A stretch of 59,024 bases of DNA from Escherichia phage Utah. Position numbers and translations under genes: made by a program. Each line of letters starts with the position of its first letter. Within the stretch, counting starts at the first letter, position 1. A model generated the notes under the pieces. That model saw only the letters and a program-made list of their open reading frames with translations. It made no database searches and was not told the DNA's origin. The stretch is taken from sequence record KY014601.1; one strand, 5' to 3'. This document shows positions 28,763 through 57,735 of this stretch, piece after piece.

Positions 28763-28993
28763 ATGTGGTGGGCGTTAGCAATGCTGGTGGCCTCGGTGCT
28801 GATCAACGCGGCCCTCGCGCCGAAGCCTGCATCGGCAAAACCAGCAACAATTCAAGATTTCGACATCCCGCAGGTGAAGGAAGGCACGCCGCAGTCGGTG
28901 GTATTCGGCGAGGTGTGGACAGCCGACTGGCAGGTATTGGGCTTCGGCAACTTCCGAACCAAAGCAGTTAAAGCGAAACAGGCGAAAAAATAA
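28763..28993 (+). CDS. Small hypothetical tail-region protein with N-terminal hydrophobic segment
   Basis: 76 aa; WWALAMLVASVLINAALA hydrophobic N-terminus. Confidence 0.35.
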   Translation: MWWALAMLVASVLINAALAPKPASAKPATIQDFDIPQVKEGTPQSVVFGEVWTADWQVLGFGNFRTKAVKAKQAKK

Positions 28994-29232
28994 TGAGCAG
29001 ACACGACGAGCCGCAGGATCAGCCGCGCATCTTTATGCGCCATGCCCGGAAACTCGGGTATTGCAAAAACGGGTCGGAGCGCTTGGCCGAGCGCTTCGGG
29101 ATCACCTTCGAACAATTCCTACGGGAAGGCTACCCGGTAGCGGAAGCCATGAAGTCCGCAAACCCGCTGCTGCGTAAGGCCGCAGCCGTGGCCCAACAAG
29201 AATGGGACGAGGCGCACGCACATGGGAAGTAA
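28993..29232 (+). CDS. Small hypothetical tail-region protein
   Basis: 79 aa; overlaps neighbours by 1 and 11 nt. Confidence 0.35.
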   Translation: MSRHDEPQDQPRIFMRHARKLGYCKNGSERLAERFGITFEQFLREGYPVAEAMKSANPLLRKAAAVAQQEWDEAHAHGK

Positions 29233-32200
29233 AGCCAAGAAGGTTACGGTTGGGTACAAATACTACATGGGCCTGTTTATGGGCCTTTTCCGTGGCCCGG
29301 TGAATGAGATTGTCGAGATCCGCGTGGGCGACCGTACCGCGTGGACAGGCTCAATCACTGGCAACACAACCATCCGGATCAACCGCGAAGACTTGTTCGG
29401 CGGCACGAAGGCGGAAGGCGGCATTGATGGCCCGCTCGAAGTTTACATGGGCGCGCCGACGCAGACCGTCAGCCAGAAGTTAAAGAACATGCTCGGTGGC
29501 CGTCAGCCGGAATTCCGTGGCGTCGTTACCGCATACTTCGACGGTCTTATCTGCGCCATGAATCCGTACCCGAAGCAGTGGAAATTCAAGGCCCGCCGCT
29601 CTACAGCCGGGTGGACTGGCGGCGTCTGGTATCCGGAAAAATGTCTGGTCAAGATGCAGGGGTACGACGGTCAGGGCAATCAGCACGAAATCCATGCCAT
29701 GAACCCGGCGCACATCCTGTATGAGTGCCAGTCGAACTACGAATGGGGCCGTGGCCTGTCACGCTCGCTTATCGACGATACGACGTTCCGCCTCGCGGCC
29801 GACACCCTGTTTAACGAAAACTTCGGCCTTTGCATCCGATGGAACCGTCAGGACACGCTCGAATCGTTCATGCAGCTTATCCTCGACCATATCGGCGGTG
29901 CGATGTACGTCAGCAAAGTGACGGGTAAACTGTCCCTGCGGTTGATCCGGAAGGACTACGACTTCGACACGCTGCCGATCTTCGACACGGATTCCGGGCT
30001 GCTGTCCATTCAGGAAGCGACCAACGCGTCTCCGGCCAATCTGGTTAACGAAGTGGTCGTGACCTACCACAACCCGATCATGGACGAAGACCAGCAGGTG
30101 CGTAGCCACAACCTCGCGCAGATCCAGAATCAGGGCTGTCTGAACAGCAATACGATTGAATACCTCGGCATCCCTACCGGGAAACTGGCGATGCAGGTGG
30201 CACAGCGTGACTTGCGCGCCGCGTCAACCAACGTCCGCCGTTTCACCGTGATCTGTGACCGCCGGGCATGGAACGTGCAACCGGGCGACGTGCTGAAAGT
30301 GCGTGACCCGAAACAGCGCGGCCTGACCGAAGTGGTTATCCGCGTCGGTACCGTAGAAGACGGCACGCTGCCGGACGGCAAGATCAAGGTTGTCGCGCTG
30401 CAAGACCAGTTCGCCTTCCAGTTAAACACGTTCAACCAAGTCGAGCCGCCAGCCGGGTATGAGCCAGACCTGATTCCTGCGATTGCCCGCCGCATCGTGT
30501 ACGAAATGCCGTACGTGGATTTGGTGCAGCAGTTACCGGACGGTGAACTGAATGCCGTTGGCCCTAACGATGCGTTTATCAACTCGCAGGCTGAGAAGCC
30601 GACCGACATGTCCGCCGCGTATGACATGGGTATCATGGCCGAAGGTGAATCCGGCTTCGACATCCGTGGCAACGGTGACTTCGGCGCGTTCGGATCACTG
30701 GCCGCCGACATCGACTACCTGTCAACGCAAATCATCCTGTCCGAAATGACCGACATGTGGGACGACGTTCAGCCCGGATTTGTGGCGCGCATCGCCAAGC
30801 CTGTTCTTGACGGCCAACGCACGCAGATGGAAATCGCCGAAGAGTTTGTCCGCATCGACGCCATCAATGGCAACGTGATTACCGTAGCGCGCGGCGTACT
30901 CGACACTATCCCATTCCGCCACCAGAAAAGCGAAATGCTTTGGGTGACGACGTACGACGGCGGTACTGACTGGCAGAAATACGCGGGCAACGAGTCCATC
31001 GACATCAAAATCCTGCCGTGGACATTGGGCGGCGGCCGCTTCCCGATTGAAGATGCGCCGATTGATCATCTGGACATGGACTTCCGCCAAATCCGCCCAT
31101 ACCCGCCGGGCAACGTGCAGCACTATCTCGCTTCGACGTCAACTCTGCAACGCTGGTATGTACCGTCCGCGCTGACCTACACGGCCAACGCCGGGGAAAC
31201 GCCTGACACGTACACCCTGACTTGGGCGCACCGCGACCGGATCCTGCAAGGCGATAAGCCTGTCCCGCACATCGACGGCGACATCGGGCCTGAACCGGGA
31301 ACCTCGTACACTATCCGCGTCTACAATCAGGAAGGAACGTTGGTTCGCACCGAGTCAGGTATCAACGGCACGACGTGGAATTGGCCGTACGCAACCGCAG
31401 CGGCTGACATGAATGTCGAAGCCAGCCTGTTTGACCCGGTGCTCGCGACGCTCCGCCTGACGTCTGTCCGCAATGGCCGTGAAAGTTGGGAATACTACGA
31501 AATGAAGGTCAGCGTTTATAAGAAGCCGCCGCAGTTCGTATATGACGCCAGCCTGATGCAGTTTGCTGCGCAGCCGTACAACGCCGCCAGTGATCCTAAC
31601 CCGCCAACGCCACCGATGGACGGCCCGTATGTTTCGTCCCTGATGCAGTTTGCCGCGCAGCCAGATGGTAGCGAGGACTTCGGCCCGGCGGAAAGCATGA
31701 ATGGCCCGAACGTGGCGCTACTGCCGCACCAAGTCACGCAGACGTCGTCAATCATTACGCCGCTCGATACGCTGCTGTACGAAACCCCGTACATCCAGTT
31801 ATCCCGCGACGGCCGTGACCTGAACACGTCGAAAGTCAGCGCATACGTGGCGCGTTCGTCCGACCGCACCGTCGATTCGTATACCCTGTTCACCAAGCAC
31901 GAAGCGGACGCAAACTACACGTCGGCCGGGACTCAGCCGTGGACACCGTGGGGCATGACCACCGTCGGCCTCGGCTTCTTCACGGACGAAGTGACCCTCG
32001 ACCCGACGTCGGATAAAGACGGCGTTCCTATCGCTGGCGCGCAGGTGGGCGACCTTCTGCTTATCGATCAGGAATTGATGTCCATCACCGCCATCAACGG
32101 CCGCACGTACAAGATTGGGCGTGGTGTGGCTGACACCATTCCGGCGCAGCACTACAGCCGCCGTCCGGTCTGGCTGATCTCCGTGGGCTTCGGCTACTCC

Positions 32201-33112
32201 GACATGGCATTCGGCGATAACGAAAAGGCGATGGTCATCATTCGCCCGGATACCTACGGCACCGACATCCCGCTGAACAAGCTGTACCCGCTCCAGTTGC
32301 AGATGCAGTACCGTCCGAAACGTCCATACCCGCCGGGTCTGATGATGATTGGCGGCCAACCGTTCTTCAACACCGCGAGCGGACTGGCAGACGATTTCAA
32401 CCCGTACAACAATCTGAAAGCGAAAGACGTGGTATGCACGTACGCACACCGCAACCGTGTATCACAATCCACCACGGCGCGCGACCACTTCGCCGTCGGC
32501 ATCACTCCGGAACCGGGCGTGAAGTACCGCGTGCGCATTGGTTATGCGTACTGGTCGCAGTCCGGAAGCGGCTTCTCGCTGCTGTCTCAGTTCGAAACGG
32601 AAGACGCGGGCTTCATCATGCGCGCGGCCGACCTTGAACGTTGGGGCCGTCAGGCGGGCTATGCGCAAGACGCTGGCGGCTACTCCACGTTAAACGTGAC
32701 CGTCAACGCGATTCGTGATGGAATGCTGAACTGGCAGGGATATACGATGACCGTGCGCGTGCCGTCCTTCCCGCTTCCTCCGGGACAGAAACCGGGCGGT
32801 GGCGATGGGCCGTGGAACCCGCCGGGCGGTGGCAATACTGGCGGTACTACTCCGCCGACGGAGCCGCCGGATCGTCCAGACCCGAGCGAGCCGGGCACCA
32901 CTGACCCATCCGAGCCGACGAAGCCGGACGAGCCGGAAGAACCGCAGCCACCAGTCGATCCGGAAGACCCGGATACTGACCCGCCGGAACCGCCGGAACC
33001 GCCCGTTGACCCGACCAACGTACCGGGATGGTCATTGAGTTGGGATCACGGTTGGGCGATGACACTGCCAGATTTCCGATATGTTCCACCAGCAGAAGAG
33101 GAACCTGAATAA
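29222..33112 (+). CDS. Host specificity / central tail fibre protein (lambda gpJ-like) with Pro/Asp/Glu-rich C-terminal region
   Basis: 1296 aa; N-terminus MGSKAKK... like gpJ MGKGSSKG...; internal duplication SLMQFAAQP x2; C-terminal PPGQKPGGGDG...PPEPPEPPVDP low-complexity stretch. Confidence 0.7.
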   Translation: MGSKAKKVTVGYKYYMGLFMGLFRGPVNEIVEIRVGDRTAWTGSITGNTTIRINREDLFGGTKAEGGIDGPLEVYMGAPTQTVSQKLKNMLGGRQPEFRGVVTAYFDGLICAMNPYPKQWKFKARRSTAGWTGGVWYPEKCLVKMQGYDGQGNQHEIHAMNPAHILYECQSNYEWGRGLSRSLIDDTTFRLAADTLFNENFGLCIRWNRQDTLESFMQLILDHIGGAMYVSKVTGKLSLRLIRKDYDFDTLPIFDTDSGLLSIQEATNASPANLVNEVVVTYHNPIMDEDQQVRSHNLAQIQNQGCLNSNTIEYLGIPTGKLAMQVAQRDLRAASTNVRRFTVICDRRAWNVQPGDVLKVRDPKQRGLTEVVIRVGTVEDGTLPDGKIKVVALQDQFAFQLNTFNQVEPPAGYEPDLIPAIARRIVYEMPYVDLVQQLPDGELNAVGPNDAFINSQAEKPTDMSAAYDMGIMAEGESGFDIRGNGDFGAFGSLAADIDYLSTQIILSEMTDMWDDVQPGFVARIAKPVLDGQRTQMEIAEEFVRIDAINGNVITVARGVLDTIPFRHQKSEMLWVTTYDGGTDWQKYAGNESIDIKILPWTLGGGRFPIEDAPIDHLDMDFRQIRPYPPGNVQHYLASTSTLQRWYVPSALTYTANAGETPDTYTLTWAHRDRILQGDKPVPHIDGDIGPEPGTSYTIRVYNQEGTLVRTESGINGTTWNWPYATAAADMNVEASLFDPVLATLRLTSVRNGRESWEYYEMKVSVYKKPPQFVYDASLMQFAAQPYNAASDPNPPTPPMDGPYVSSLMQFAAQPDGSEDFGPAESMNGPNVALLPHQVTQTSSIITPLDTLLYETPYIQLSRDGRDLNTSKVSAYVARSSDRTVDSYTLFTKHEADANYTSAGTQPWTPWGMTTVGLGFFTDEVTLDPTSDKDGVPIAGAQVGDLLLIDQELMSITAINGRTYKIGRGVADTIPAQHYSRRPVWLISVGFGYSDMAFGDNEKAMVIIRPDTYGTDIPLNKLYPLQLQMQYRPKRPYPPGLMMIGGQPFFNTASGLADDFNPYNNLKAKDVVCTYAHRNRVSQSTTARDHFAVGITPEPGVKYRVRIGYAYWSQSGSGFSLLSQFETEDAGFIMRAADLERWGRQAGYAQDAGGYSTLNVTVNAIRDGMLNWQGYTMTVRVPSFPLPPGQKPGGGDGPWNPPGGGNTGGTTPPTEPPDRPDPSEPGTTDPSEPTKPDEPEEPQPPVDPEDPDTDPPEPPEPPVDPTNVPGWSLSWDHGWAMTLPDFRYVPPAEEEPE

Positions 33113-33852
33113 TGCCGAAAAAGACAGCCCCGAATCAGGGGCTACCCTACGGGTGGATTCGCGGGGAAGACTATTGGGGTGGCCCGATGTCAGACTCGCA
33201 AATCTTCCTCGACACCACGCTATTCCTGACACTGGAATCGCTGACCTTCTCCGCTCCGCCGCCGGACGTGGTGGACGGGGCCACCTACGTCGTCGCGGCT
33301 AACCCGACGGGGGCGTGGGCCGGACATGAAGGCGATGTGGCCGTGTACGTGGAAAAGGTCTGGACGTTTTACAAGCCTCGTTACGGATGGCGCGCTCGCG
33401 TCCGTTCGTACGAGAAATTCTTGTGGTTTAACGGCACGACGTGGCTTGACGAGGCGACCGGGGAAGACCCGGTCAACCCTGACCCCGACCCAAGCGTTAA
33501 GCCGAAATGGTACGACATCGGCGTGACAGTGTCGGACAGCATGTACGCGAATGAACCCGTCGTGCATCTGCCGATCCTTGACCCGATGTATCTGCCTGCC
33601 AATATGGTTGGCTCACAGTTCGACATGGCCGACGGCGCAAGCCCGGCCTATTACCAATTCCGCGTGCAGCGCAACGGCCAGAACGTCGCAACGATGACCG
33701 TGGAAATCGGAAACTTCAACGCATCGTTTACCACTGCCGGGGGCAACCCGATTTCCTTCGCCGCCGGGGATCGCATGACGGTTCGCGCGCAGCAGGAAGC
33801 CGTCGCCGGGATGAAAAACTTTGGCTTCGTAATTCGCATGGGACTGGTCTAA
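33112..33852 (+). CDS. Hypothetical tail-associated protein
   Basis: 246 aa; start overlaps J-like stop. Confidence 0.4.
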   Translation: MPKKTAPNQGLPYGWIRGEDYWGGPMSDSQIFLDTTLFLTLESLTFSAPPPDVVDGATYVVAANPTGAWAGHEGDVAVYVEKVWTFYKPRYGWRARVRSYEKFLWFNGTTWLDEATGEDPVNPDPDPSVKPKWYDIGVTVSDSMYANEPVVHLPILDPMYLPANMVGSQFDMADGASPAYYQFRVQRNGQNVATMTVEIGNFNASFTTAGGNPISFAAGDRMTVRAQQEAVAGMKNFGFVIRMGLV

Positions 33853-33861
33853 GGGGATCAC

Positions 33862-34869
33862 ATGGCAAGTTATTTTGATGGATATGAGCAGTTCCGTTCG
33901 ACGGACACGTCTAACCCGGGAACCTTTATGCGGCTCGCCGGGTACACGGTTCGAGGCGCGATTTCGGCGGGTCTTGGCCGCCTCCCGGCGAGCATCGGAC
34001 TGTACACGCTGAACAGCGCCTACGAGCGCGACTGGACATGGGGTGGCGACACCCTCACCATCGGCTTTGCGTGCAAGCAGCAGGCGCGTGGCGCGCTATT
34101 TGGGCTAAAGGTCGGTGACGCCACTGGCCGCGATGTTCCGCATGTCGTTGTCTACACTGACCCGGTGTCGGCGCTCGTCACCATCCAGACCGGGCCAGAC
34201 CAGTCGGAAGTCGGGTATGTCACGCCGATCCCGACACGCTGGTATTACTATGAAGTCGTGATGAACCGCGCCACGAAGGTTATCGAGGTGTTTGTCAACG
34301 GGAAATCGGACGTAGCCTATACACTGCCGGACGTCATTGCGGCGTCGGCCGTCGTGCGCATGGTCTTCAACCCGTTCGACATGCTGCCATCGTTCCCTGC
34401 CGATGCGAACTACAAGGAAGACACGAAGGTATTCGACGACATGTACGCGCAGGACGGCGGCCGCTTAGGGGCCATCCAGATCAGCGGACGTCTGCCGGAC
34501 GGCGACCGTGATACCGAATGGGGCGTGGCCGGGCCTAACCCGACGGCAGCGCATAACCAGATGGTCGGCCGACTGCCGCCAGACATGGCAAACATGTACA
34601 TCTACACTGGTACGAATGACCGTCACGACTCGTTTATCTCGACGGCGAAGTTACCGGATAACGGGGCCATTCTGGCGCAGGGACTGATCGCATTAGTCCG
34701 GAAGGCCACGGCCGACCCGGTGTCGATTATCGCGAACATTGACAGTCACACCGTTACCCTGTCGAATATCGGCCGTAATTGGGAATATCGTTACGCGCAA
34801 TTCACCACAAGCGGTTATGATCGAGCCGCCATTGAAGCCGCCGAATTCGGTGTGCGTTCAGTAATTTAA
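33862..34869 (+). CDS. Lectin-like (LamG/ConA-like signature) putative receptor-binding protein, paralog 1
   Basis: 335 aa; shares MxxFxDGYD N-terminus, WYYYEVV...IEVFVNG, IQISGRLP, YIYTGTND motifs with the two following genes. Confidence 0.5.
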   Translation: MASYFDGYEQFRSTDTSNPGTFMRLAGYTVRGAISAGLGRLPASIGLYTLNSAYERDWTWGGDTLTIGFACKQQARGALFGLKVGDATGRDVPHVVVYTDPVSALVTIQTGPDQSEVGYVTPIPTRWYYYEVVMNRATKVIEVFVNGKSDVAYTLPDVIAASAVVRMVFNPFDMLPSFPADANYKEDTKVFDDMYAQDGGRLGAIQISGRLPDGDRDTEWGVAGPNPTAAHNQMVGRLPPDMANMYIYTGTNDRHDSFISTAKLPDNGAILAQGLIALVRKATADPVSIIANIDSHTVTLSNIGRNWEYRYAQFTTSGYDRAAIEAAEFGVRSVI

Positions 34870-34879
34870 AGGGGTTACT

Positions 34880-35842
34880 ATGCTGAAATTTATGGACGGT
34901 TTTGACCAGCTACGCGGCTGGTCTGACGTTACGGATGGGCTGACCAAATGCGGGTACACCGTGTCTGGCACGCCTACGTTAGAAGAAGGACGCGTGGCTA
35001 CGCAGATGGCGGTATCACTGCCGGACACGGCCAGCCTGAAACGCGTGTTCACCTCCGGGGCCACGAAGGTCGTGTTTGGCTTTGCCTTCCGCGCTATCGG
35101 TCTGCGCCACACCCTGATCACCATCAAAGATGTCGCGACGATTACGTGGAACGAGACTGACGGGAAGATCACGGCCGCTGGCGGTACCGGAACGGCGGTG
35201 CTGCTGCTGGACTTGTGGTACTACATCGAAGTGGTTCTGGACAAGACTACCAGCACGATCGAGGTGTACGTGAACAACGGGCTGGACATCACCGCTCCTT
35301 CGCCGTCGAGCGCTAACCCGGTCACTAACTATGAAGTCACATGGGCGGGCGTTGCCACGGCGCAGTTCCTTCTCGACGACATCCAGTTCATCGACAACCA
35401 GCCGGGTAAGTATACCGGGCGCATCGGGCCTATCCAGATCACCAGCCGCTTGCCGATGGTGGACGTGGACAAAGAATGGTCGCCGTCATCCGGCAATGAT
35501 CACTACCCGCTCGTCTACAATCAGCCGCCCGTCGAGGGGTCGTACATCCAGTCGAACACGTCCGGCGCGACCGACACGTTTCTATCAAACACCGTCATCC
35601 CTGATACGCAAAACATTCTGGCCGTCGGCATGACCGTGCTGAACAAAAAGTCAGACGTGGACAACCGTCAGTTAGGCATGGTCATCGGCCAAAAAGGCGA
35701 CACGCAAAAAGAAGTTATCGACGCGGCGCTATCCACGACTGAAAAGTATAGTTATGCTGTGTTCGAGACGAACGCGGCCGGGCAAGACTGGAATGACGAA
35801 CGACTCAGCGAAGCGCCGTTCGGCGTCATCGTAAGACCATAA
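34880..35842 (+). CDS. Lectin-like putative receptor-binding protein, paralog 2
   Basis: 320 aa; WYYIEVV...IEVYVNNG, IQITSRLP, YIQSNTSGATD. Confidence 0.5.
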   Translation: MLKFMDGFDQLRGWSDVTDGLTKCGYTVSGTPTLEEGRVATQMAVSLPDTASLKRVFTSGATKVVFGFAFRAIGLRHTLITIKDVATITWNETDGKITAAGGTGTAVLLLDLWYYIEVVLDKTTSTIEVYVNNGLDITAPSPSSANPVTNYEVTWAGVATAQFLLDDIQFIDNQPGKYTGRIGPIQITSRLPMVDVDKEWSPSSGNDHYPLVYNQPPVEGSYIQSNTSGATDTFLSNTVIPDTQNILAVGMTVLNKKSDVDNRQLGMVIGQKGDTQKEVIDAALSTTEKYSYAVFETNAAGQDWNDERLSEAPFGVIVRP

Positions 35843-35855
35843 GGAGCATACCGAA

Positions 35856-36875
35856 ATGTTTAAATTCTGTGACGGGTACGACCACTATGCCGAAATCGGC
35901 GCGAAGGGTACGGCCCTACAAAGTTATCTGGAAGCCGCCGGGTACGTGGTGCGTAATGCCAGCGATTCCACGTTTTCCGTTGTCGAGGGCCGCCGGACAG
36001 GTGCGCGTGCGCTGAAATTCACCGTGGCCGCCAGTTCATCTGTCAACGCCTCACTGTCATGGGGATTCACCACGACGGCCTCGTCAGTCGTCTTCGGATT
36101 TGCCATGAAAGCCGGGCTATCCCGTATGCGTATCGCGCGTATCGAGAACATCGTGGACATCGAGTGGGACACCACGACCGGGAAAATCCGCGTAGGCGAG
36201 CAGTTAGGCGTCAACCCGCTGATCCTGAACGCATGGTACTACTTCGAAATCGAGATCGATAAGACGGCCAACACCGTCAAGGTCTACGCGAATAACGAAT
36301 TGCAGTTAACCGTTACGCCATCGAGTGCGCCGACCACCACGTACACAATCGTTTGGGGGCAGACGGGTACCGCACCTAATGCTGGCGAACAGACACTGGA
36401 TGACTTCTACGTGATCGACGGTTCCGGTAGCCGCAACAACGCGCGCCTGACTCCGGTCGAAGTGACCAGTCGTATGCCAACGGCCGACGTTTCTACGCAG
36501 TGGGAAGTCGTGAACGCCTCGTCTGCCACGCCGCACTATCAGATCGTGTCACAGCTTTCCCCGGGCGGCGAGTCGAAGCCATACCTGCAATCGAACACCG
36601 CAGGGGCGACCGATATGTACCGTTCGAACGTGACGCTGCCGAACAATAACCAGATCTTCGCCGTGTCCGTCATCGCGTACGCCCGTAAAGGCGACCTTGA
36701 TGATCGTAAACTCGGGCTGGTGGTCAACACGGAAGGCGGTACGCCGACTGAAATTCAGGTGCCGCTCACCGAGTCGTACAAGTATTATCAGGCATCGTTC
36801 GAGCAAGCGCCGGGCGGAAGTGACTGGAACCAGAACAACGTCGAATCTTTGCAATTCGGCATCATCACTCGATAA
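35856..36875 (+). CDS. Lectin-like putative receptor-binding protein, paralog 3
   Basis: 339 aa; WYYFEIE...VKVYANN, VEVTSRMP, YLQSNTAGATD. Confidence 0.5.
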   Translation: MFKFCDGYDHYAEIGAKGTALQSYLEAAGYVVRNASDSTFSVVEGRRTGARALKFTVAASSSVNASLSWGFTTTASSVVFGFAMKAGLSRMRIARIENIVDIEWDTTTGKIRVGEQLGVNPLILNAWYYFEIEIDKTANTVKVYANNELQLTVTPSSAPTTTYTIVWGQTGTAPNAGEQTLDDFYVIDGSGSRNNARLTPVEVTSRMPTADVSTQWEVVNASSATPHYQIVSQLSPGGESKPYLQSNTAGATDMYRSNVTLPNNNQIFAVSVIAYARKGDLDDRKLGLVVNTEGGTPTEIQVPLTESYKYYQASFEQAPGGSDWNQNNVESLQFGIITR

Positions 36876-36889
36876 GGGAGGGACTCACT

Positions 36890-38116
36890 ATGCCTGTAGT
36901 ATGGCACTGCGGTTTTAATGGTTTTATCAACAATGCGTCGGGGCAGGGTCAGTCTAACCTGTTTATCAACACAAACGATAACGTGGCGGGAGGCCATGCC
37001 CTCTCCACCGACAATTTAATTAATAACGTTTTTGGTCGTGGAAACGGCAACCAAAACGGCGGCTTTCTCCCTCTGATCACTTACTACGGATGTAAATGGA
37101 CGGCATCCGGGTCGTACGGGTCGTCTTATGTTTTTGGTCGTGTTAAGCCGTCTTTCTTTGATAATTCCGTGCCATGCCTAAGCACCGAACAATACCAACC
37201 TGCTAACCAATCTGACTGGTGGGCCGGGTGGCAGTTCCGAATTGATTTGTGCTGGCCTTCGGCGGAACGCCTGACGACGTCGTGGCGCATGGGCTTCCGT
37301 ATTGGCCGCGCAACACACCCCACATACAATATTGGTTATCAAGTCTATATCTGCCCGGCAGGTATTAACGGCGCAGAAGGCCGAGACTTATATCGTATCC
37401 CGATCACTGCGGGTCAGGACGAGAAGTATATGGAGGTGGAATGGTTGGCGGGTACCAAGACCCTTAACATCTATCTGAACGACGAACTTGTCTCGACCCG
37501 CACCAACTACACCGCCTACGATATGTCGTACGGCCTTATTTTGGTGTGCGAACATTACGCTAGCAATAGCACTAGCTCCACACCGTTCTTCGGTTTTGAA
37601 CTGCGGGACATGTATGTCCAGAAAATCGTTTCAGATGCAGATCAACGCCTCGGGTCTTCGACGAAAGTATATGCGTTCAATCCCGTTAATGACGATGTTG
37701 TACAGTTCTCTCGGCCAGACGCATATTCGTCAAACGCCGCCGTCGCGGCAACGCCGATCGCTCCCGGTGGTATCACCCCGACGCCGTCGCAATCTACTGC
37801 AATTCTCGGGGCGGACGTGGTCGGACAGCAAGACCTGTATAACATTGACATTTCCAAAGTCAGCACACGTCTGGCGTCGATTGAAGCGGTTAACGTCCGG
37901 ACGATGGCCCGAAATCCGTTGCTTGGAAATAGACAATCTGCCGCGATCGCCAAGTCCGGGGCCACTCAAACCCAAAGCGAGAACACATCGACGCTCGAAC
38001 AAGGCGGCCTGTGGCGTTTCAACACGTTGCAGATGGTGTCTGACCCGGCGGATGGCTCGCGCTGGAACCTTACAAAACTGGCCGGGCTTAAAGTCGGTAC
38101 CAAATTCGTCGCGTAA
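36890..38116 (+). CDS. Hypothetical tail-region protein, possibly divergent fourth paralog
   Basis: 408 aa; MEVEWLAGTKTLNIYLNDEL loosely resembles the WYY..E...VYVNN core. Confidence 0.4.
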   Translation: MPVVWHCGFNGFINNASGQGQSNLFINTNDNVAGGHALSTDNLINNVFGRGNGNQNGGFLPLITYYGCKWTASGSYGSSYVFGRVKPSFFDNSVPCLSTEQYQPANQSDWWAGWQFRIDLCWPSAERLTTSWRMGFRIGRATHPTYNIGYQVYICPAGINGAEGRDLYRIPITAGQDEKYMEVEWLAGTKTLNIYLNDELVSTRTNYTAYDMSYGLILVCEHYASNSTSSTPFFGFELRDMYVQKIVSDADQRLGSSTKVYAFNPVNDDVVQFSRPDAYSSNAAVAATPIAPGGITPTPSQSTAILGADVVGQQDLYNIDISKVSTRLASIEAVNVRTMARNPLLGNRQSAAIAKSGATQTQSENTSTLEQGGLWRFNTLQMVSDPADGSRWNLTKLAGLKVGTKFVA

Positions 38117-52668: not shown

Positions 52669-53040
52669 TTAAACTTCGTCGTCGTCCGCGACGTCGGTGG
52701 CCGTACAGGTTACGACGGCCTGAATGAACATGCGGCCAGACGGGTAAGTCACCAGTGCGGATTCCATACTGAACCGTTGGCCGTGGTGTTTCATGGCGTT
52801 CCGGATGGAAGAATTAAGGCTGGCCCGCATCTTCGCTTTGAGGGCATTGGCCTCGTCCTGTACCTGCGAAAGCGTACGGTCAAGCGGGAGTTCTTGGGAC
52901 AGGGTGTACACGCCACCGACTTCCAGCGCAATGAGGTTCCCCACGACGCTGTACACGCGCACGCGTGACGGCAGTTCAACATCCGGCTCGGTCGTCATCA
53001 TTGCGCCAGTCAGTTCGGCCGGGCTTAGTTCTTTGCTCAT
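52669..53040 (-). CDS. Hypothetical early protein with acidic C-terminus, first gene of leftward unit 1
   Basis: 123 aa; ends ...TDVADDDEV; promoter 53083-53111 upstream. Confidence 0.5.
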   Translation of the reverse strand: MSKELSPAELTGAMMTTEPDVELPSRVRVYSVVGNLIALEVGGVYTLSQELPLDRTLSQVQDEANALKAKMRASLNSSIRNAMKHHGQRFSMESALVTYPSGRMFIQAVVTCTATDVADDDEV

Positions 53041-53082
53041 TGGGATGGCTCCAGTTGGTTCGTTAAATGTTACGTTCGGAGA

Positions 53083-53111
53083 ACAATAGTTCTACACGCG
53101 ACGTATGTCAA
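53083..53111 (-). promoter_or_regulatory. Leftward early promoter (TTGACA-17-TATTGT) with conserved spacer element
   Basis: -35 TTGACA 53106-53111, spacer TACGTCGCGTGTAGAAC, -10 TATTGT 53083-53088. Confidence 0.55.
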
Positions 53112-53164
53112 TTCATTTCATCCAGTAATTATGATGACCGGGTGACGCTCCAGTTTAGTTTCAG

Positions 53165-53409
53165 CCGGATGACGTTTTGAAGTAAGGCGGGTGGCCGGGC
53201 CGCCGGGCTTCAACCGGGTAACTTTTTCAAGTAAGCGCGGAACGTCGCAACGACAACCGGACAGGTTTTTCAAGTAAGCCCGTCGGCCGGGTGAAATTGC
53301 CCCGACGCTGGTGGACAAAACCGTCAGCCGGGTAGGTTTTTGAAGTAAGGACTGGCCGCGTTGTTCAAAATTTTTCAACCGGGTAACTTTTTCAAGTAAG
53401 CCCGTCGGG
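53165..53409. repeat. Five direct iteron-like repeats, consensus CCGG(G/A)NA(A/G)NNTTTT(C/G)AAGTAAG
   Basis: Copies start at 53165, 53214, 53257, 53328, 53379 (spacing 43-71 bp); followed by AT-rich patch and a GC-rich block 53440-53700; no ORF. Confidence 0.6.
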
Positions 53410-53706
53410 AATTTTTATAGAGAAAGTCAGGCCCGGCGCGGTCTGCCGTTGTGGGCGGTTGTCGTTTTTGGCGGAATTTCGTACAAATCGTTATAAATCA
53501 ATGGTTTAACCTATGCGCCGATCGGCCTGTTTTGGCCCGGTTGGCGTCGGTTTTTCATATAGAATTCAAGGGTTTAGGACGTGGCGCCGCGTGCCGTTTG
53601 GCGGTGTGCCGGGGCGGGGGCCGTGGGGCGCGGCGGTGCAATGCGGCCCGGCGTGGCGATCGGTGGCGCTTTTATGTGCGGTTACTCAAATAATATGAAA
53701 AAAGAT

Positions 53707-53753
53707 TTGACGCACGCCGCGTATATCATCTACATTTGAATTCCCTTCGGGGG
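53707..53753 (+). promoter_or_regulatory. Rightward promoter unit with conserved core and 5' UUCG stem-loop
   Basis: TTGACGCACGCCGCGTATATCAT-CTACAT then CCCTTCGGGGG; about 47-nt unit nearly identical to 56484-56530. Confidence 0.55.
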
Positions 53754-53800
53754 ACGGGGCAAAAAGTCCAGGCGATAAACTAACTTTATGAGGTATCACG

Positions 53801-54058
53801 ATGGAAAAGGTATATAACGCGATCAAGGGTCAGACGTTGCAACATTGGTTAACTATTGCCATCAAGCGCGACGAAAACGGAGACGCGACGGTCGAACTAC
53901 GCAGCACGATCCACGTTAACCGGGTGAGCACGCTTTCTTTTTCATGGGGGAAGGAATTCACCGACGCCGATATTTTGAATGACGCCGATTTATTACGCGT
54001 CATTTATCAGAAGTATGGGCGCGAAATTTTCACCGCTGATTTTACACGTAACATCTAA
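53801..54058 (+). CDS. Hypothetical protein (AT-richer right-arm operon)
   Basis: 85 aa; RBS GAGGT; A/T-rich codon third positions by eye. Confidence 0.5.
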   Translation: MEKVYNAIKGQTLQHWLTIAIKRDENGDATVELRSTIHVNRVSTLSFSWGKEFTDADILNDADLLRVIYQKYGREIFTADFTRNI

Positions 54059-54076
54059 TTTAATAAGGGGATCACT

Positions 54077-54616
54077 ATGCAAACCATTAACACCAAATAC
54101 CATAACGGGAAAATCGTTGCGACGTCGTGGAATGGCTGGACGCGTTCAGAATATGACGCGGCGTTATCCAGTGAGCAAAATCACCGCGCCGCCGCTGAAA
54201 AGCTAATCATTAAACTGAATAAAGGCCGCTCGATGGAATGGGGGATCGTGAATAGTGCGCCATCCGTGCCGGGCGTGCGTGGTAAAGATAACGGCTGGAC
54301 GTTTATTATTGGTTATGTGCCGGAGGTTGCGCCGCTGGATATGTCAATCACTGTTAAATTCTGCCCGGCAACAAATAAAGGCCCGGCGTTTATGCGCGCT
54401 TATTCGTGGTTAGTGCCGCGCGGGATCAAGGTTAACTATTCGCCACGCGTCGCCGACGGGTCAGATATTCAGGCAAACGCACGTTATGCGGCGGGAATCA
54501 TGTTAGACCGCATTAATGAAATATGCCGCGAGGGGGGCGATCTCTTAGGCTGGAAAATCGCGGACTATGTGCAACTTTACGACGGCGATCGCCTGTTCAC
54601 ACTGAAATCTAATTAA
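54077..54616 (+). CDS. Hypothetical protein
   Basis: 179 aa. Confidence 0.5.
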   Translation: MQTINTKYHNGKIVATSWNGWTRSEYDAALSSEQNHRAAAEKLIIKLNKGRSMEWGIVNSAPSVPGVRGKDNGWTFIIGYVPEVAPLDMSITVKFCPATNKGPAFMRAYSWLVPRGIKVNYSPRVADGSDIQANARYAAGIMLDRINEICREGGDLLGWKIADYVQLYDGDRLFTLKSN

Positions 54617-54630
54617 TCCGGGGGCGCGTC

Positions 54631-54831
54631 ATGTTAATGGCTATTATCTTGATCGGTTATTCAATAATTGCGGCTGTTATATATCACGACGCGCGGGCGG
54701 TGTGGCGTCGCTGTAAGGTTGAGCGCCGTTATTCTTTCGGGCGCAAAACGTTTTATTTACGCGAGCGTAAAACGGGCCGTTTGATCGGCTGTTCAAATAA
54801 TTTTTTCACTCTTCTGTTACAAGGGGCGTAA
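54631..54831 (+). CDS. Small hypothetical membrane protein
   Basis: 66 aa; N-terminal hydrophobic MLMAIILIGYSIIAAVIY. Confidence 0.4.
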   Translation: MLMAIILIGYSIIAAVIYHDARAVWRRCKVERRYSFGRKTFYLRERKTGRLIGCSNNFFTLLLQGA

Positions 54832-54833
54832 CC

Positions 54834-55457
54834 ATGCGTACTATTTCACTTTATACTTTTAATGAACTGTCAGACGTCGCGAAAGCAAAAGCGATCGAAA
54901 ATTACCGCGAATATAAGAGCGGCGATCAATTCGACTTTTCAGAATACAAAGAAAGCCTACGTGAATTTTGTGATGATCTATGCGTCGAGGTGCGCGACTG
55001 GTCATACGGTCTGGGCGGTTGCGATGTTCGCTACGAAATTAATCATAGTTCAGATGTGGAAGATTTATCCGGCGTACGTGCGTACAAATGGATCATTAAT
55101 AATGTTAATGCGTTTAATATGCGTCGCCGCGTTTATCGTGAATACCGTGAAGTCAATAACCACGGTTTTAAACAAAAGGCGTCTTTCGTTAAATGGGTTA
55201 GCGGGGTGTTCAACGCGTCCGACGATTGCCCATATACAGGCGTATGCTATGACGAATCATTATTGAAGCCTTTTCGTGACTTCCTGAAAAAGCCGGATAA
55301 CCGCACGATCGCGGAACTGATACGCGAATCTATAGACGGGTATTGTTCGGATATGCTCGACGAACTGGAAGGCCGCGAAAGTGACGAATATTTACGGGAT
55401 GAACTGGAAAACGGCGACACGCCTGAATTTTTTGAAAACGGCGCTATTTATAACTAA
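54834..55457 (+). CDS. Hypothetical acidic protein
   Basis: 207 aa; D/E-rich throughout (e.g. DELEGRESDEYLRDELENGDTPEFFENG). Confidence 0.5.
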   Translation: MRTISLYTFNELSDVAKAKAIENYREYKSGDQFDFSEYKESLREFCDDLCVEVRDWSYGLGGCDVRYEINHSSDVEDLSGVRAYKWIINNVNAFNMRRRVYREYREVNNHGFKQKASFVKWVSGVFNASDDCPYTGVCYDESLLKPFRDFLKKPDNRTIAELIRESIDGYCSDMLDELEGRESDEYLRDELENGDTPEFFENGAIYN

Positions 55458-55468
55458 TCGGGGGATCT

Positions 55469-55672
55469 ATGGGTCATATGTATGGCGTTATCTTGTCAAA
55501 TGGTACGCATTGCGACACGTCAACCACGGAAAAGGGCGCGAAAAATTACGCCACGCGCCACGGGTACAAGGAAGTAAGCCGCCGCCTGAATTGCGGCTAT
55601 AGCGTCGAAATCGTAGCACATCGCGCCGGGTCGAAATGGATCGCCGGGCCTGCTGACCACTCAACCAAATAA
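55469..55672 (+). CDS. Hypothetical protein
   Basis: 67 aa. Confidence 0.4.
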   Translation: MGHMYGVILSNGTHCDTSTTEKGAKNYATRHGYKEVSRRLNCGYSVEIVAHRAGSKWIAGPADHSTK

Positions 55673-55682
55673 GGGGATCACC

Positions 55683-56231
55683 ATGAAACTGAATATTACC
55701 GCGCCGGGCCTTTTCTTTAATCGTAGCGGCGACCGCGTCACCGTGGATCAAATCGTTTTAGAGAATAGCGCCGGGGCCGTCGTGTCATTCCCGGTTAAGG
55801 GGCGGATCTGGAAAATGTACCGGGGCGCATATCGTCCGCGTGAGTTTAAGATCTGGACGGCGTCGGGCAAGTTTTACGCGGGCGAACAATCCCGATCACC
55901 GTGGGATATTGTCGGCGAGGTTGTCGCGGACGATGTGCGCCCGGTCTACTGGCAAGATCTGACCGATGACCAGAAAGCGCAAGCCGCCGCCAAATATCAC
56001 AACGGTGAAGGCACGCCGGGCGATTATTTCACCTATACGCCGGATCAATTCATTGTAATTAATGGTGACGTGTACGATCTGGACGCCGACGCGTCAGTCT
56101 ATGAGGTCGAAGGGTTAAAAGGTCATGTGCGCATACTGGAAAGCTCAAAGGCGGACGGGGCCGCGCTGGCGGTGCAATGTGTGGACGGCTGGCGGGTAAT
56201 AAGCGTTTACCGCGTACAGGTGACATCATGA
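55683..56231 (+). CDS. Hypothetical protein
   Basis: 182 aa. Confidence 0.5.
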   Translation: MKLNITAPGLFFNRSGDRVTVDQIVLENSAGAVVSFPVKGRIWKMYRGAYRPREFKIWTASGKFYAGEQSRSPWDIVGEVVADDVRPVYWQDLTDDQKAQAAAKYHNGEGTPGDYFTYTPDQFIVINGDVYDLDADASVYEVEGLKGHVRILESSKADGAALAVQCVDGWRVISVYRVQVTS

Positions 56232-56449
56232 ATAAAACCGGATTTTCGGGGAACGCCGCTAGGGCCGCGATCAAGTTTACCGCGTGCGGCGCGATCGTGG
56301 TGTTTATCGGGGCGGCGGTTATTTTCGGCGACAACGTCGGGCCGTATAAAGTGTTTTTGTATACCGTCGCCGGGGGCGTATGTGTGCGCCTGATTTGGCC
56401 TACACAAGACGAAGGCGACGCACTTATAAAACGGGATGACGGGCCGTAA
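56228..56449 (+). CDS. Small hypothetical membrane protein
   Basis: ATG 56228 overlapping previous stop (ATGA); hydrophobic AAIKFTACGAIVVFIGAAVIF; 5' end contains 27-bp repeat also found at 58480. Confidence 0.4.
   Translation: MNKTGFSGNAARAAIKFTACGAIVVFIGAAVIFGDNVGPYKVFLYTVAGGVCVRLIWPTQDEGDALIKRDDGP
56233..56259 (+). repeat. 27-bp perfect direct repeat, copy 1 (TAAAACCGGATTTTCGGGGAACGCCGC)
   Basis: Identical to 58480-58506; together they flank a ~2.2 kb block containing a promoter copy and four genes. Confidence 0.85.
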
Positions 56450-56483
56450 AGGTGACGCGGCCGACGATTAAAGAGAAAAGTTA

Positions 56484-56530
56484 TTGACGCACGCCGCGTA
56501 TATCATTTATATTTAAATTCCCTTCGGGGG
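56484..56530 (+). promoter_or_regulatory. Second rightward promoter unit (TTGACG-17-TTATAT) with conserved core and UUCG stem-loop
   Basis: TTGACGCACGCCGCGTATATCAT-TTATAT then CCCTTCGGGGG; gene ATG 56575. Confidence 0.6.
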
Positions 56531-56574
56531 CCGGGGGCAATGGGGCCGACGGTTAGCAAAACAGGTGCTACAAA

Positions 56575-57735
56575 ATGACACATGATCAAATCGTTGCAAT
56601 GGTTGGAAAATATAACATCAAGGCCGATCGCGCCGTGTCTTACAACTTTGATAAATACGGTTCAACGCAAGTCGAGATCCGCGAGGTGGACGGCGGATCA
56701 TTAATCTGGCGTGCGTGGTCTTATGAAAGCAATTTCGAAAACGTGTTAGAAAGCGCGCTTGATCATTCCGGTGTGCTGAAAACCGCCGACGAAATCGCCG
56801 AACAGGAAGCCGCCGCACGCGCTCAACGCTTGCGCACTGACGCAATTTTCTTCGATGTTCACGGGTTCGAAGATGATTTCATCCTCAACCTTTCCGACTT
56901 TACCCGCGCTGAAATCGAAGCGGAGATCATCGCGATGAATGCAGAATTAAACGCGGCAAGCGCCAACGCCGACGCCGACGCGGTTGATCACGTTTTACGC
57001 TCAACAAATCCGGCGGGGGAATACGTTTATTTAAAGCGCGGTTACTGGATGTTAGATCTTGATGACGCGGAGATCCTCAACGCCCGCCCGGATATTCACT
57101 GGACAAGCCTTTACGACACGCCGATCGAATATGTGACCGTTGAGCAGGCCCGCAAGGATGACCCGGAAAGCGATTTCATCAAACAACTTAAAGCGGGCTA
57201 CGTGACCGCCCCGACCGACTACGTCGATCGCGCGTGCGCCGCCGTTGAGCGGGGAAACGTTAACGCATCGGGGATCGTGCTGCATACCTTGCGCGACAAA
57301 ATCGACGGCGAATTTTACGAAATCGCGACACGTATTAGCCCGGCGGAATATCAGCTTTATCGTGTGCGCGTTGTCGTGTCCTGCTGCATTGATGGCGCAT
57401 TTCATAATGTCATTGAACTGGATCGCGATGTGAACACGGTTGAGCACGTCCGCGACGTGGTGCGCGTCGGCTGCATGAAACAATATATCAAGCAAGCCCG
57501 CGCGACGTATACCGCGACCGGGGCCGCCACGCTCAACAATGACAAGACGGCGACCCGCATCAAGATTAAAACCGTTGCGGGAATGACGTTGATCGCTAAA
57601 ACCGAAGACGTGATTTTTTCAGATAGCGGCCTGTTTTGCTCCGCGTGGTTGATGCGTCTTGATTTGCTGGAAAACAAGACTTACGCGCAAGCCGTCACGA
57701 CGTCGCAGATCAAAACCATCGAATTCATCAAATAA
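56575..57735 (+). CDS. Hypothetical protein
   Basis: 386 aa; no motif recognised. Confidence 0.5.
   Translation: MTHDQIVAMVGKYNIKADRAVSYNFDKYGSTQVEIREVDGGSLIWRAWSYESNFENVLESALDHSGVLKTADEIAEQEAAARAQRLRTDAIFFDVHGFEDDFILNLSDFTRAEIEAEIIAMNAELNAASANADADAVDHVLRSTNPAGEYVYLKRGYWMLDLDDAEILNARPDIHWTSLYDTPIEYVTVEQARKDDPESDFIKQLKAGYVTAPTDYVDRACAAVERGNVNASGIVLHTLRDKIDGEFYEIATRISPAEYQLYRVRVVVSCCIDGAFHNVIELDRDVNTVEHVRDVVRVGCMKQYIKQARATYTATGAATLNNDKTATRIKIKTVAGMTLIAKTEDVIFSDSGLFCSAWLMRLDLLENKTYAQAVTTSQIKTIEFIK

Follow-up and report, generated by a model that had tools for sequence, protein, structure and literature searches.

The C-terminal arm of the Chi-like tail-tip hub protein gp30 as a candidate docking tether for the downstream DUF2793 fibre protein

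Identity of the hub protein and its gene order

The 59,024-nucleotide sequence of Escherichia phage Utah (KY014601.1), the whole of which is called the window below, was analysed for the open reading frame (ORF) at 29222..33112 on the + strand. This coding sequence was assigned to a tail-tip hub / central fibre protein, the homologue of Chi gp30 (also BH2P, or YSD1_29 in phage YSD1), and is referred to as gp30. The ORF listing gave an uninterrupted frame of 1296 aa. The C-terminal part of the protein was found to hold a duplicated folded module, a linker with three motif copies, an acidic proline-rich spacer and a conserved tryptophan peptide, and hub tails of this periodic kind co-occur with the N-terminal segment of the DUF2793-type fibre protein encoded directly downstream.

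Salmonella phage TS13 shares 99.2% nucleotide identity with the 3.9-kb region, and most other listed Chivirus genomes share 96-97%. In the PDB sequence search gp30 matched 8vjh_A ('Minor tail protein', 1296 aa) over its full length (3011 bits), and aa 1-763 matched the JBD30 hub chain 8rk3_o (E 1.9e-137), which is labelled 'Tip attachment protein J domain-containing protein'. The Pfam family Phage-tail_3 (PF13550) was detected on aa 210-376 with 41.7 bits against a gathering cut-off of 23 (E 1.4e-10), thereby agreeing with the two structural matches and with the preliminary description of a J-like tip protein. The protein was further assigned to phrog_6284, a tail protein family. Because of the identity to TS13 and the Chivirus genomes and the matches to 8vjh_A, 8rk3_o and YSD1_29, gp30 was taken as the hub of a Chi-like flagellotropic siphophage; judged from its sequence, the window is that of a Chi-like Salmonella siphophage and gp30 is its hub / central fibre protein.

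The gene order is in accordance with this assignment. The same position in the Chi record KM458633 is held by CHI_30, annotated 'minor tail protein', and its surroundings are CHI_25 (tape measure), CHI_26 (distal tail protein), gp27 to gp29 and CHI_31 ('tail fiber protein'); the annotation of BSPM4 agrees with this order around the hub. Pairwise BLAST showed that Chi gp26-gp31 correspond, in order, to JBD30 gp49-gp54. The tail-module order of tape measure, distal tail protein, hub 1, small proteins, hub 2 and fibre, taken from the BSPM4 and Chi annotations and the pairwise BLAST to JBD30, thus fits gp30.

Chi gp30 (8VJH) and YSD1_29 are near-identical to the protein of the window, with 1296 aa, a full-length alignment, the same genome position and no substantive difference at the sequence level. 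In the accessible parts of the literature Chi gp30 is named baseplate hub protein 2 of the tail tip, and YSD1_29 is reported to be labelled on the long tail fibre. According to the deposited Chi tip structure and the papers citing it, the hub forms a trimer by which the tail tube is shut at its distal end. As gene and protein were previously known and the structure is partly solved, the element itself is rated here as already known.

Domain organisation of gp30

The hub core (aa 1-424, 29222..30493, + strand) was aligned to JBD30 gp53 in 8rk3 and is the counterpart of the JBD30 hub domains I-IV with the long linker. It is the best conserved region of gp30 between genera, with 47-73% identity. 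Module A (aa 425-770, 30494..31531, + strand) follows with the FN3-like / small beta-barrel / FN3-like distal domains described for the JBD30 hub (PMC11445458), and its alignment to JBD30 gp53 reaches residue 717 of 735. The Foldseek output lists 8vjh_A with 769 residues in all, which falls at about the end of module A; given this count, the Chi model probably ends just before the first linker motif, leaving the C-terminal 527 residues unmodelled. The accessible part of PMC12264135 states that the C-terminal region of YSD1_29/gp30 was too flexible for analysis by small-angle X-ray scattering and cryo-electron microscopy (cryo-EM). As a separate observation, the gp30 homologue of Hafnia phage Enc34 (NC_019524.2) is annotated as two ORFs of 684 and 584 aa (L005:3711-5765 and L005:5833-7587); the split falls inside module A, and a real split or a sequencing frameshift could explain it.

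The region behind module A is not uniformly flexible. Comparison of gp30 with itself by BLASTP aligned aa 851-1187 with aa 425-770 at 25% identity over 363 columns (E 3e-20), revealing that module B (aa 843-1193, 31748..32800, + strand) is an internal duplicate of module A. AlphaFold2 (AF2) was run on aa 764-1296 with an alignment of 21 sequences, and module B was predicted as folded, with a predicted local distance difference test score (pLDDT) of 82-97. The best Foldseek matches of this model were the JBD30 hub 8rk3_b (E 3e-24) and the Chi tip protein 8vjh_A (E 8e-23). No Pfam match was obtained on aa 764-1296. Module B, of about 350 aa, is therefore a well-folded duplicate of the distal hub module, and it was overlooked in the preliminary description.

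Relatives of aa 764-1296 were sought by tblastn on phage genomes and by an exhaustive search of 1.8 billion representatives. The exhaustive search gave 1031 relatives, including full-length proteins at 27-38% identity. A word-indexed protein search with aa 764-1296 returned 6 matches only and missed the Chi relatives, the candidate selection being swamped by Pro-rich words. Homologues from Redjacvirus, Enchivirus, Lavrentievavirus and Cenphatecvirus share the architecture of three motifs, module B, a Gly/Pro-rich acidic stretch and the terminal sequence GWSxxWDH(G/D)WAxxLP(D/E).

The modules were also met in other settings. A lineage of metagenomic phage proteins of about 800 aa (P0011-P0024; L009:671-3115) starts with 'MANSDY...' and has no hub core; these proteins hold only module A, linker, module B, spacer and Trp tail, and a DUF2793 gene directly follows. 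Many proteins of about 500 aa (P0074, P0077, P0100, P0111, P0130, P0132 and others) carry one N-terminal copy of the module, 'MANSDY...GRGCxDTIP', and end in a domain that, by eye only, looks LamG / ConA-like (e.g. ...FDEVRFTRAGRYSANYT). It seems, therefore, that different C-terminal domains share this module as their N-terminal adaptor.

The inter-module linker and its repeated motif

The two modules are joined by a linker (aa 771-842, 31532..31747, + strand) of three tandem units, each consisting of a short motif and then a Pro/Asp/Gly-rich spacer. The motif SLMQFAAQP occurs in two exact copies only, copy 1 at aa 777-785 (31550..31576, + strand) and copy 2 at aa 806-814 (31637..31663, + strand), which are 20 residues apart; the 27-nt copies differ at 4 bases, all of them synonymous. 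The longest exact repeat in gp30 is of 9 aa, and the maximum in 1000 composition-preserving shuffles was 7, reached in 5. Since no exact repeat of at least 9 aa arose in these shuffles, the repeat exceeds chance. The short duplication noticed in the preliminary description is thus real, and a third, degenerate copy had escaped it: VALLPHQVTQ at aa 831-840 (31712..31741, + strand), recognisable only through comparison with other genera. In the AF2 model aa 764-842, which include the linker, stay under a pLDDT of 50, and every one of the three copies carries a short helix of low confidence.

The three copies, about 29 aa apart, align across five Casjensviridae genera. A position-specific scoring matrix built from the Casjensviridae copies gave 16 hits on the linkers of 25 distant homologues, compared to 1.9 expected from shuffles (maximum 7), and 1 hit on the remaining parts of the same proteins, so that the density in the linker is about 50 times higher. 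The self-similarity test found a significant internal repeat in the linkers of 17 out of 30 homologues, with a spacing of 21-31 aa, and hmmbuild/hmmsearch with the 14-aa linker motif gave no match at a 3-bit threshold. The repeated sequence differs by lineage (SLMQFAAQP, VSF(L/V)NQSVAQ, GI(L/R)VSGFSR, YG(M/I)RLA), and the copies are more alike within one protein than to their orthologues. This likeness, together with the purely synonymous differences in the DNA, argues for selection on the motif peptide; the pattern fits either a binding partner common to the copies or gene conversion that acts under constraint. The length of the linker is constrained to 57-74 aa, and its identity beyond the closest genus, 11-25%, is among the lowest of all regions.

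Among the distant homologues only P0020 (877 aa) holds true collagen-like G-X-Y runs (GDPGDPGDPGQPGGPGDPGQP...), which lie in its inter-module linker, with a shorter run in its C-terminal spacer; this hints at a possible triple helix of the three chains in some lineages.

The acidic spacer and the tryptophan tail

Module B is followed by a Gly-rich and then acidic Pro-rich spacer (aa 1194-1265, 32801..33016, + strand), delimited by composition, the AF2 model and the homologues. The last 110 aa of gp30 contain P 30%, G 12%, E 12%, D 11% and T 9%, so that P/G/E/D/T together make up 74%. The bias in composition given in the preliminary description is therefore correct, and its extent is not: low complexity stops at about aa 1265. 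The spacer has 19 acidic and 2 basic residues and a net charge of -17. A collagen-like triple helix was ruled out for it, as aa 1194-1265 contain no G-X-Y run and no period-3 signal. The spacer was found in all double-module homologues with a length of 52-77 aa and an identity of 25-43% beyond the closest genus.

The final 31 aa (NVPGWSLSWDHGWAMTLPDFRYVPPAEEEPE) are not of low complexity and belong to the better conserved stretches of the C-terminal half. They include the conserved peptide GWSLSWDHGWAMTLPD (aa 1269-1284, 33026..33073, + strand), the proposed fibre-docking peptide, in whose pattern GWSLSWDHGWAxxLPD the residues W1270, W1274 and W1278 stand at i, i+4 and i+8 (W-x3-W-x3-W). This Trp-rich peptide behind the spacer had likewise been overlooked. 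It is retained in phages of Providencia, Hafnia, Proteus and Serratia as well as in metagenomic homologues of 27-38% identity, and the distant full-length and 'MANSDY...' homologues all end in variants of W-x3-W-x3-W, e.g. HWDxNWDRHWDAY.

AF2 predicted aa 1194-1296 with pLDDT 33-52 and without secondary structure. A C-terminal receptor-binding domain as in lambda J was ruled out by pLDDT below 52 over these residues, the lack of a Pfam match and the poor Foldseek matches to lambda. The earlier idea that the C-terminus is a flexible linker and not such a domain is supported by these pLDDT values, by the 769-residue Chi model and by the flexibility stated in the accessible text of PMC12264135.

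The downstream DUF2793 protein and its association with the hub tail

The stop codon of gp30 overlaps the start codon of gp31 in TAATG (33110..33114, + strand), and the junction is likewise close or overlapping in most related loci. The gp31 gene (33112..33852, + strand) encodes a DUF2793 fibre protein of 246 aa (PF10983, E 3.3e-22). Its N-terminal part of about 125 aa (33112-33486, + strand) is the counterpart of the JBD30 gp54 'thigh' and of the R4C fibre rod and knob: the N-terminal ~120 aa align with JBD30 gp54 with invariant residues in common, and JBD30 gp54 matches the gp31 family phrog_7049 (E 1.9e-6). The AF2 model of this domain (pLDDT about 90) had the R4C fibre 8gtc_T as its best PDB match in Foldseek (E 4.6e-4) and also matched JBD30 8rk3_E (E 0.04, with a Foldseek probability of 0.92). 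Homology of the gp31 N-terminal domain to the thigh domain of JBD30 gp54 is held with moderate confidence.

The structural literature gives two precedents for such a pair of neighbours. In JBD30 the gp54 trimer forms a helical bundle, the thigh of the receptor-binding protein, and takes up one hub C-terminus in its middle (PMC11445458); in R4C and in RcGTA three hub chains carry three fibre trimers on fibre-binding ends (PMC10276861). According to Harvey et al, the gene directly behind that of the central fibre is the 'invariably' observed place of DUF2793 proteins, whose conserved N-termini they proposed as the means of attachment to the particle (bioRxiv 10.1101/150227).

The end of the upstream ORF was examined in 80 viral loci with a DUF2793 relative, 64 of them non-redundant, the search alignment being made without JBD30 gp54. 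Where the fibre protein matched from its first residues, 45 out of 48 non-redundant loci had an upstream ORF ending in an aromatic i/i+4/i+8 peptide; where the first ~26 residues were missing, as in gene transfer agent-like (GTA-like) fibres, the number was 0 out of 16. The co-occurrence of the periodic hub tail with the fibre N-terminal segment has a Fisher p of 2e-12 over the 64 loci, uncorrected for kinship. A Pro-rich spacer is present in 36 of the 45 loci with the periodic tail and absent in 9. In single-module hubs the periodic pattern comes directly after the last domain: JBD30 gp53 ends in GLGFRLGEELGG, and further hubs end in GYGMFYGATYGE, GWGMAWGDYYGG and like sequences, with the same i/i+4/i+8 hydrophobic/aromatic rhythm as in GWSLSWDHGWA. 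Tail and fibre segment also form pairs, GWSxxWDHGWA occurring with YGWxRGEDYWGGP and HWDxNWDRHWDAY with YGWLRGEDWWGDP. Two metagenomic double-module proteins (about 32% identity) have the DUF2793 gene directly downstream.

The preliminary description had suggested that the end of gp30 tethers the downstream lectin-like proteins (gp32-34). The tether idea is kept; the likely direct partner is gp31 and not gp32-34, as synteny and homology to JBD30, R4C and RcGTA indicate.

For an AF2 model, gp31 aa 1-130 was taken three times and fused by Gly-Ser linkers, together with the C-terminal 36 aa of gp30, into a single chain; the alignment of 21 rows was made up with the equivalent fusions from 20 related loci, paired phage by phage. 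The three gp31 N-domains were predicted with pLDDT about 90 and a predicted template modelling score of 0.72, with one helix per copy as in the JBD30 description.

Two side observations concern these loci. In loci L073-L101 the DUF2793 genes lack the N-terminal ~26 aa and stand behind hubs that end in ...Q(L/I)S..(F/Y)GRG... with no aromatic periodic tail, which suggests a second, different mode of attachment, as in R4C and RcGTA. In locus L026 (IMG/VR) the frame upstream of gp31 is open for 503 aa, compared to more than 830 aa in its relatives; the accessible text of PMC12264135 mentions a truncated YSD1_29 homologue in phage 35, and the short frame of L026 may be this truncation.

Proposed model and alternative explanations

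The reading that we favour, and consider somewhat probable, is that the C-terminal arm of gp30 is a flexible tether with a Trp docking peptide for the gp31 trimer, carried on a trimeric Chi-like tip hub. Residues 1-770 would build the closed tail tip, and they are the portion of the protein that is solved for Chi. The remaining 526 residues (aa 771-1296) would leave the tip as a flexible modular arm, made in order of the ~70-aa linker with three motifs, the FN3 / barrel / FN3 duplicate, the ~70-aa spacer and the W-x3-W-x3-W peptide. The Gly-rich and then strongly acidic Pro-rich spacer would act as an extended, non-collapsing tether, and the Trp-periodic peptide as the docking element for trimeric gp31, as the JBD30 hub C-terminus does in the homologous fibre trimer. 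The arm may then be the proximal, hub-anchored part of the Chi tail fibre, through which the more distal fibre proteins would attach.

The fibre of Chi was described from electron microscopy as single and about 220 nm long. The contour of the arm, estimated from residue counts, is at most roughly 65-75 nm, which is about a third of this length. As the arm falls short of 220 nm, gp31-gp36 presumably form most of the fibre.

Several points weigh against the docking tether. Three independent arms of at most roughly 65-75 nm do not alone explain a single fibre of ~220 nm, which would require that the arms join into one or that the bulk of the fibre consists of other proteins. The AF2 fusion left the gp30 tail at pLDDT 33-42, though a helix appeared at LSWDHGWAMT, and since the confidence of the tail was not raised, its docking is inferred from homology and co-occurrence. 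The co-occurrence statistic ignores phylogeny, and 3 of the 48 loci are exceptions. The three linker motifs are left without an explanation by the model, and any binding partner of theirs is putative. Finally, parts of the arm map may already be described or contradicted in Sonani 2024 or Dunstan 2019.

A different explanation, considered unlikely, is that the receptor-binding fibre is formed by gp30 with its own C-terminal half: module B, the linkers or both would contact the flagellar filament directly, and the Pro-rich stretch and Trp tail would serve for binding or wrapping and not for the docking of another protein. Immunogold labelling with anti-YSD1_29 decorates the long fibre and pre-treatment of virions with the antibody blocks infection, as summarised in the accessible part of PMC12264135, and FN3-like domains, to which the Foldseek matches of module B belong, are often adhesive. 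Labelling and neutralisation are compatible with the docking tether too, because the antibody would label gp30 as an anchor or proximal segment just as well, and blocking such a segment would also stop infection; neutralisation is expected even if gp30 merely anchors the fibre. The arm spans at most about a third of the 220-nm fibre by the estimate from residue counts. Unlike typical host-specific tips, tail and spacer are conserved in Salmonella, Providencia, Proteus and Hafnia phages, and the tail pattern is shared with the pilus-dependent JBD30, where it is a docking peptide. Contact of the arm with the flagellum does not exclude that it also serves as the docking tether.

An extension of the proposal, in which the arm is a string of short docking sites that assembles the whole Chi fibre, is considered decidedly unlikely. 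The linker motifs and the Trp peptide would each recruit a partner (the gp31 trimer, perhaps gp32-34). If true, the lineage-specific likeness of the motifs within one protein would reflect co-evolution with these partners, and the geometry that allows a single fibre to wrap the rotating flagellum would come from the duplicated module together with the acidic Pro-rich spacer of constrained length. The long fibre would then be built from the hub in a modular, peptide-mediated way, unlike the rigid joints of JBD30, R4C and lambda.

The Trp peptide on its acidic tether could also be an anchor for a membrane interface or glycan, contacting the outer membrane, lipopolysaccharide or a secondary receptor at the cell surface, and this was judged improbable. 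In general, Trp residues at i, i+4 and i+8 could plausibly give an amphipathic helix an interfacial or sugar-stacking role, and the AF2 fusion did not place the tail on gp31. The tail, however, covaries with the DUF2793 N-terminal segment and is absent where this segment is absent, for which reason the anchor is disfavoured; moreover, the equivalent peptide of JBD30 is buried in the fibre trimer.

It is very improbable that repeat and Pro-rich stretch arose neutrally, through replication slippage or recombination in a linker that tolerates such changes, and do no more than connect domains, for although low-complexity sequence is prone to slippage and linker and spacer have the lowest identities between genera (11-25% and 25-43% beyond the closest genus), both repeat and spacer persist to about 27% identity with constrained lengths, the protein-identical SLMQFAAQP copies differ by 4 synonymous changes only, indicating purifying selection, and motif-like matches are some 50 times denser in the linker (16 against 1.9 expected).

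Comparison with known systems and significance

One of the closest known systems besides Chi is gp53/gp54 of JBD30 (8RK3). JBD30 gp53 is 36% identical over gp30 aa 1-763, the gene order (distal tail protein, upper baseplate protein, two small proteins, hub, fibre) is the same, and the downstream protein shares the DUF2793-type N-terminal domain. The last residues of its hub likewise form a hydrophobic peptide of i/i+4/i+8 spacing, and in JBD30 this peptide is docked in the fibre trimer. JBD30 gp53, however, has one distal module with the docking peptide attached directly, whereas the Chi type inserts the triple-motif linker, a second module and the ~70-aa spacer.

In RcGTA and the megatron hub of roseophage R4C (8GTC), three hub chains carry three DUF2793-type fibre trimers, encoded directly downstream, at the C-terminal end of the hub. 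The fibre there binds a folded fibre-binding domain; the DUF2793 proteins lack the N-terminal ~26 aa and the hubs lack an aromatic periodic tail. Lambda gpJ has the same general role at the central tip and FN3-like domains, and its Foldseek matches are weak (8k35_A and 8iyk_F, with a TM score of about 0.16). Its C-terminal LamB-binding domain has no counterpart in gp30, which ends in a predicted disordered region and a short conserved peptide.

Pro-rich spacers of the TonB type are extended, polyproline-II-like and non-collapsing, and they separate two functional ends. The (Glu-Pro)n/(Lys-Pro)n region of TonB is of like composition to the gp30 spacer, an analogy of function only and not a homology. 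The gp30 spacer differs from it in being uniformly acidic and in having a Gly-rich hinge before it, with no collagen-type G-X-Y.

Chi is a model flagellotropic phage, and both the composition of its 220-nm fibre and the attachment of the fibre to the tip are unsettled in the accessible literature. One paper takes CHI_31 as the putative fibre protein, and the accessible text of PMC12264135 takes YSD1_29 as the fibre. The present results give a residue-level map of the half of gp30 that is invisible to cryo-EM, with the three linker motifs, the duplicated module, the spacer and the W1270/W1274/W1278 peptide facing a probable DUF2793 partner as targets suited to mutagenesis, pull-downs and fibre engineering. 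The map could also account for the labelling and neutralisation of the fibre by antibodies against gp30 without the need for gp30 to be the protein that binds the flagellum. The triple motif, the duplication, the spacer and the Trp tail are absent from the accessible literature, to which they appear to be an addition, Sonani 2024 and Dunstan 2019 lying outside its coverage. With the same coverage, the family-wide link between the periodic aromatic hub tail and the DUF2793 N-terminal segment appears likewise to be an addition.

Neighbouring genes and further observations

Behind gp31 lie the paralogs gp32 (33862-34869), gp33 (34880-35842) and gp34 (35856-36875), followed by gp35 (36890-38116). 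The three paralogs belong to one PHROG, phrog_2448, in which their function is given as unknown, and gp35 is a distant member. Laminin_G_3 matched 3 of the 14 family members of gp32-34 (best E 0.006, under the Pfam cut-off), and the best PDB match of the family profile was NTNHA region 898-1008, a jelly-roll (E 0.0057); a ConA/LamG-like lectin fold of gp32-34 is weakly supported by these sequence matches. The pilus-dependent JBD30 has the separate fibres gp47/gp48, which differ from the present system in having no detectable homologue in the window. Gp32-34 were considered as homologues of these pilus-binding proteins and rejected, as BLAST gave no match and the PHROGs are different.

At the upstream border of the hub gene, the first 11 nt of gp30 (29222-29232) are shared with the end of gp29 (28993-29232), and the small upstream ORFs gp28 and gp29 both match PHROGs labelled tail assembly chaperone. 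On the minus strand, the ORF at 32680..33018 (112 aa, Gly/Ser-rich) mirrors the Pro-rich coding sequence and is very unlikely to be a gene. The GC content of the window falls to 0.45-0.53 at 1-1000 and 53001-57000 and is 0.55-0.62 over most of the remaining sequence, and the GC skew is strongly positive from about 52 kb on.

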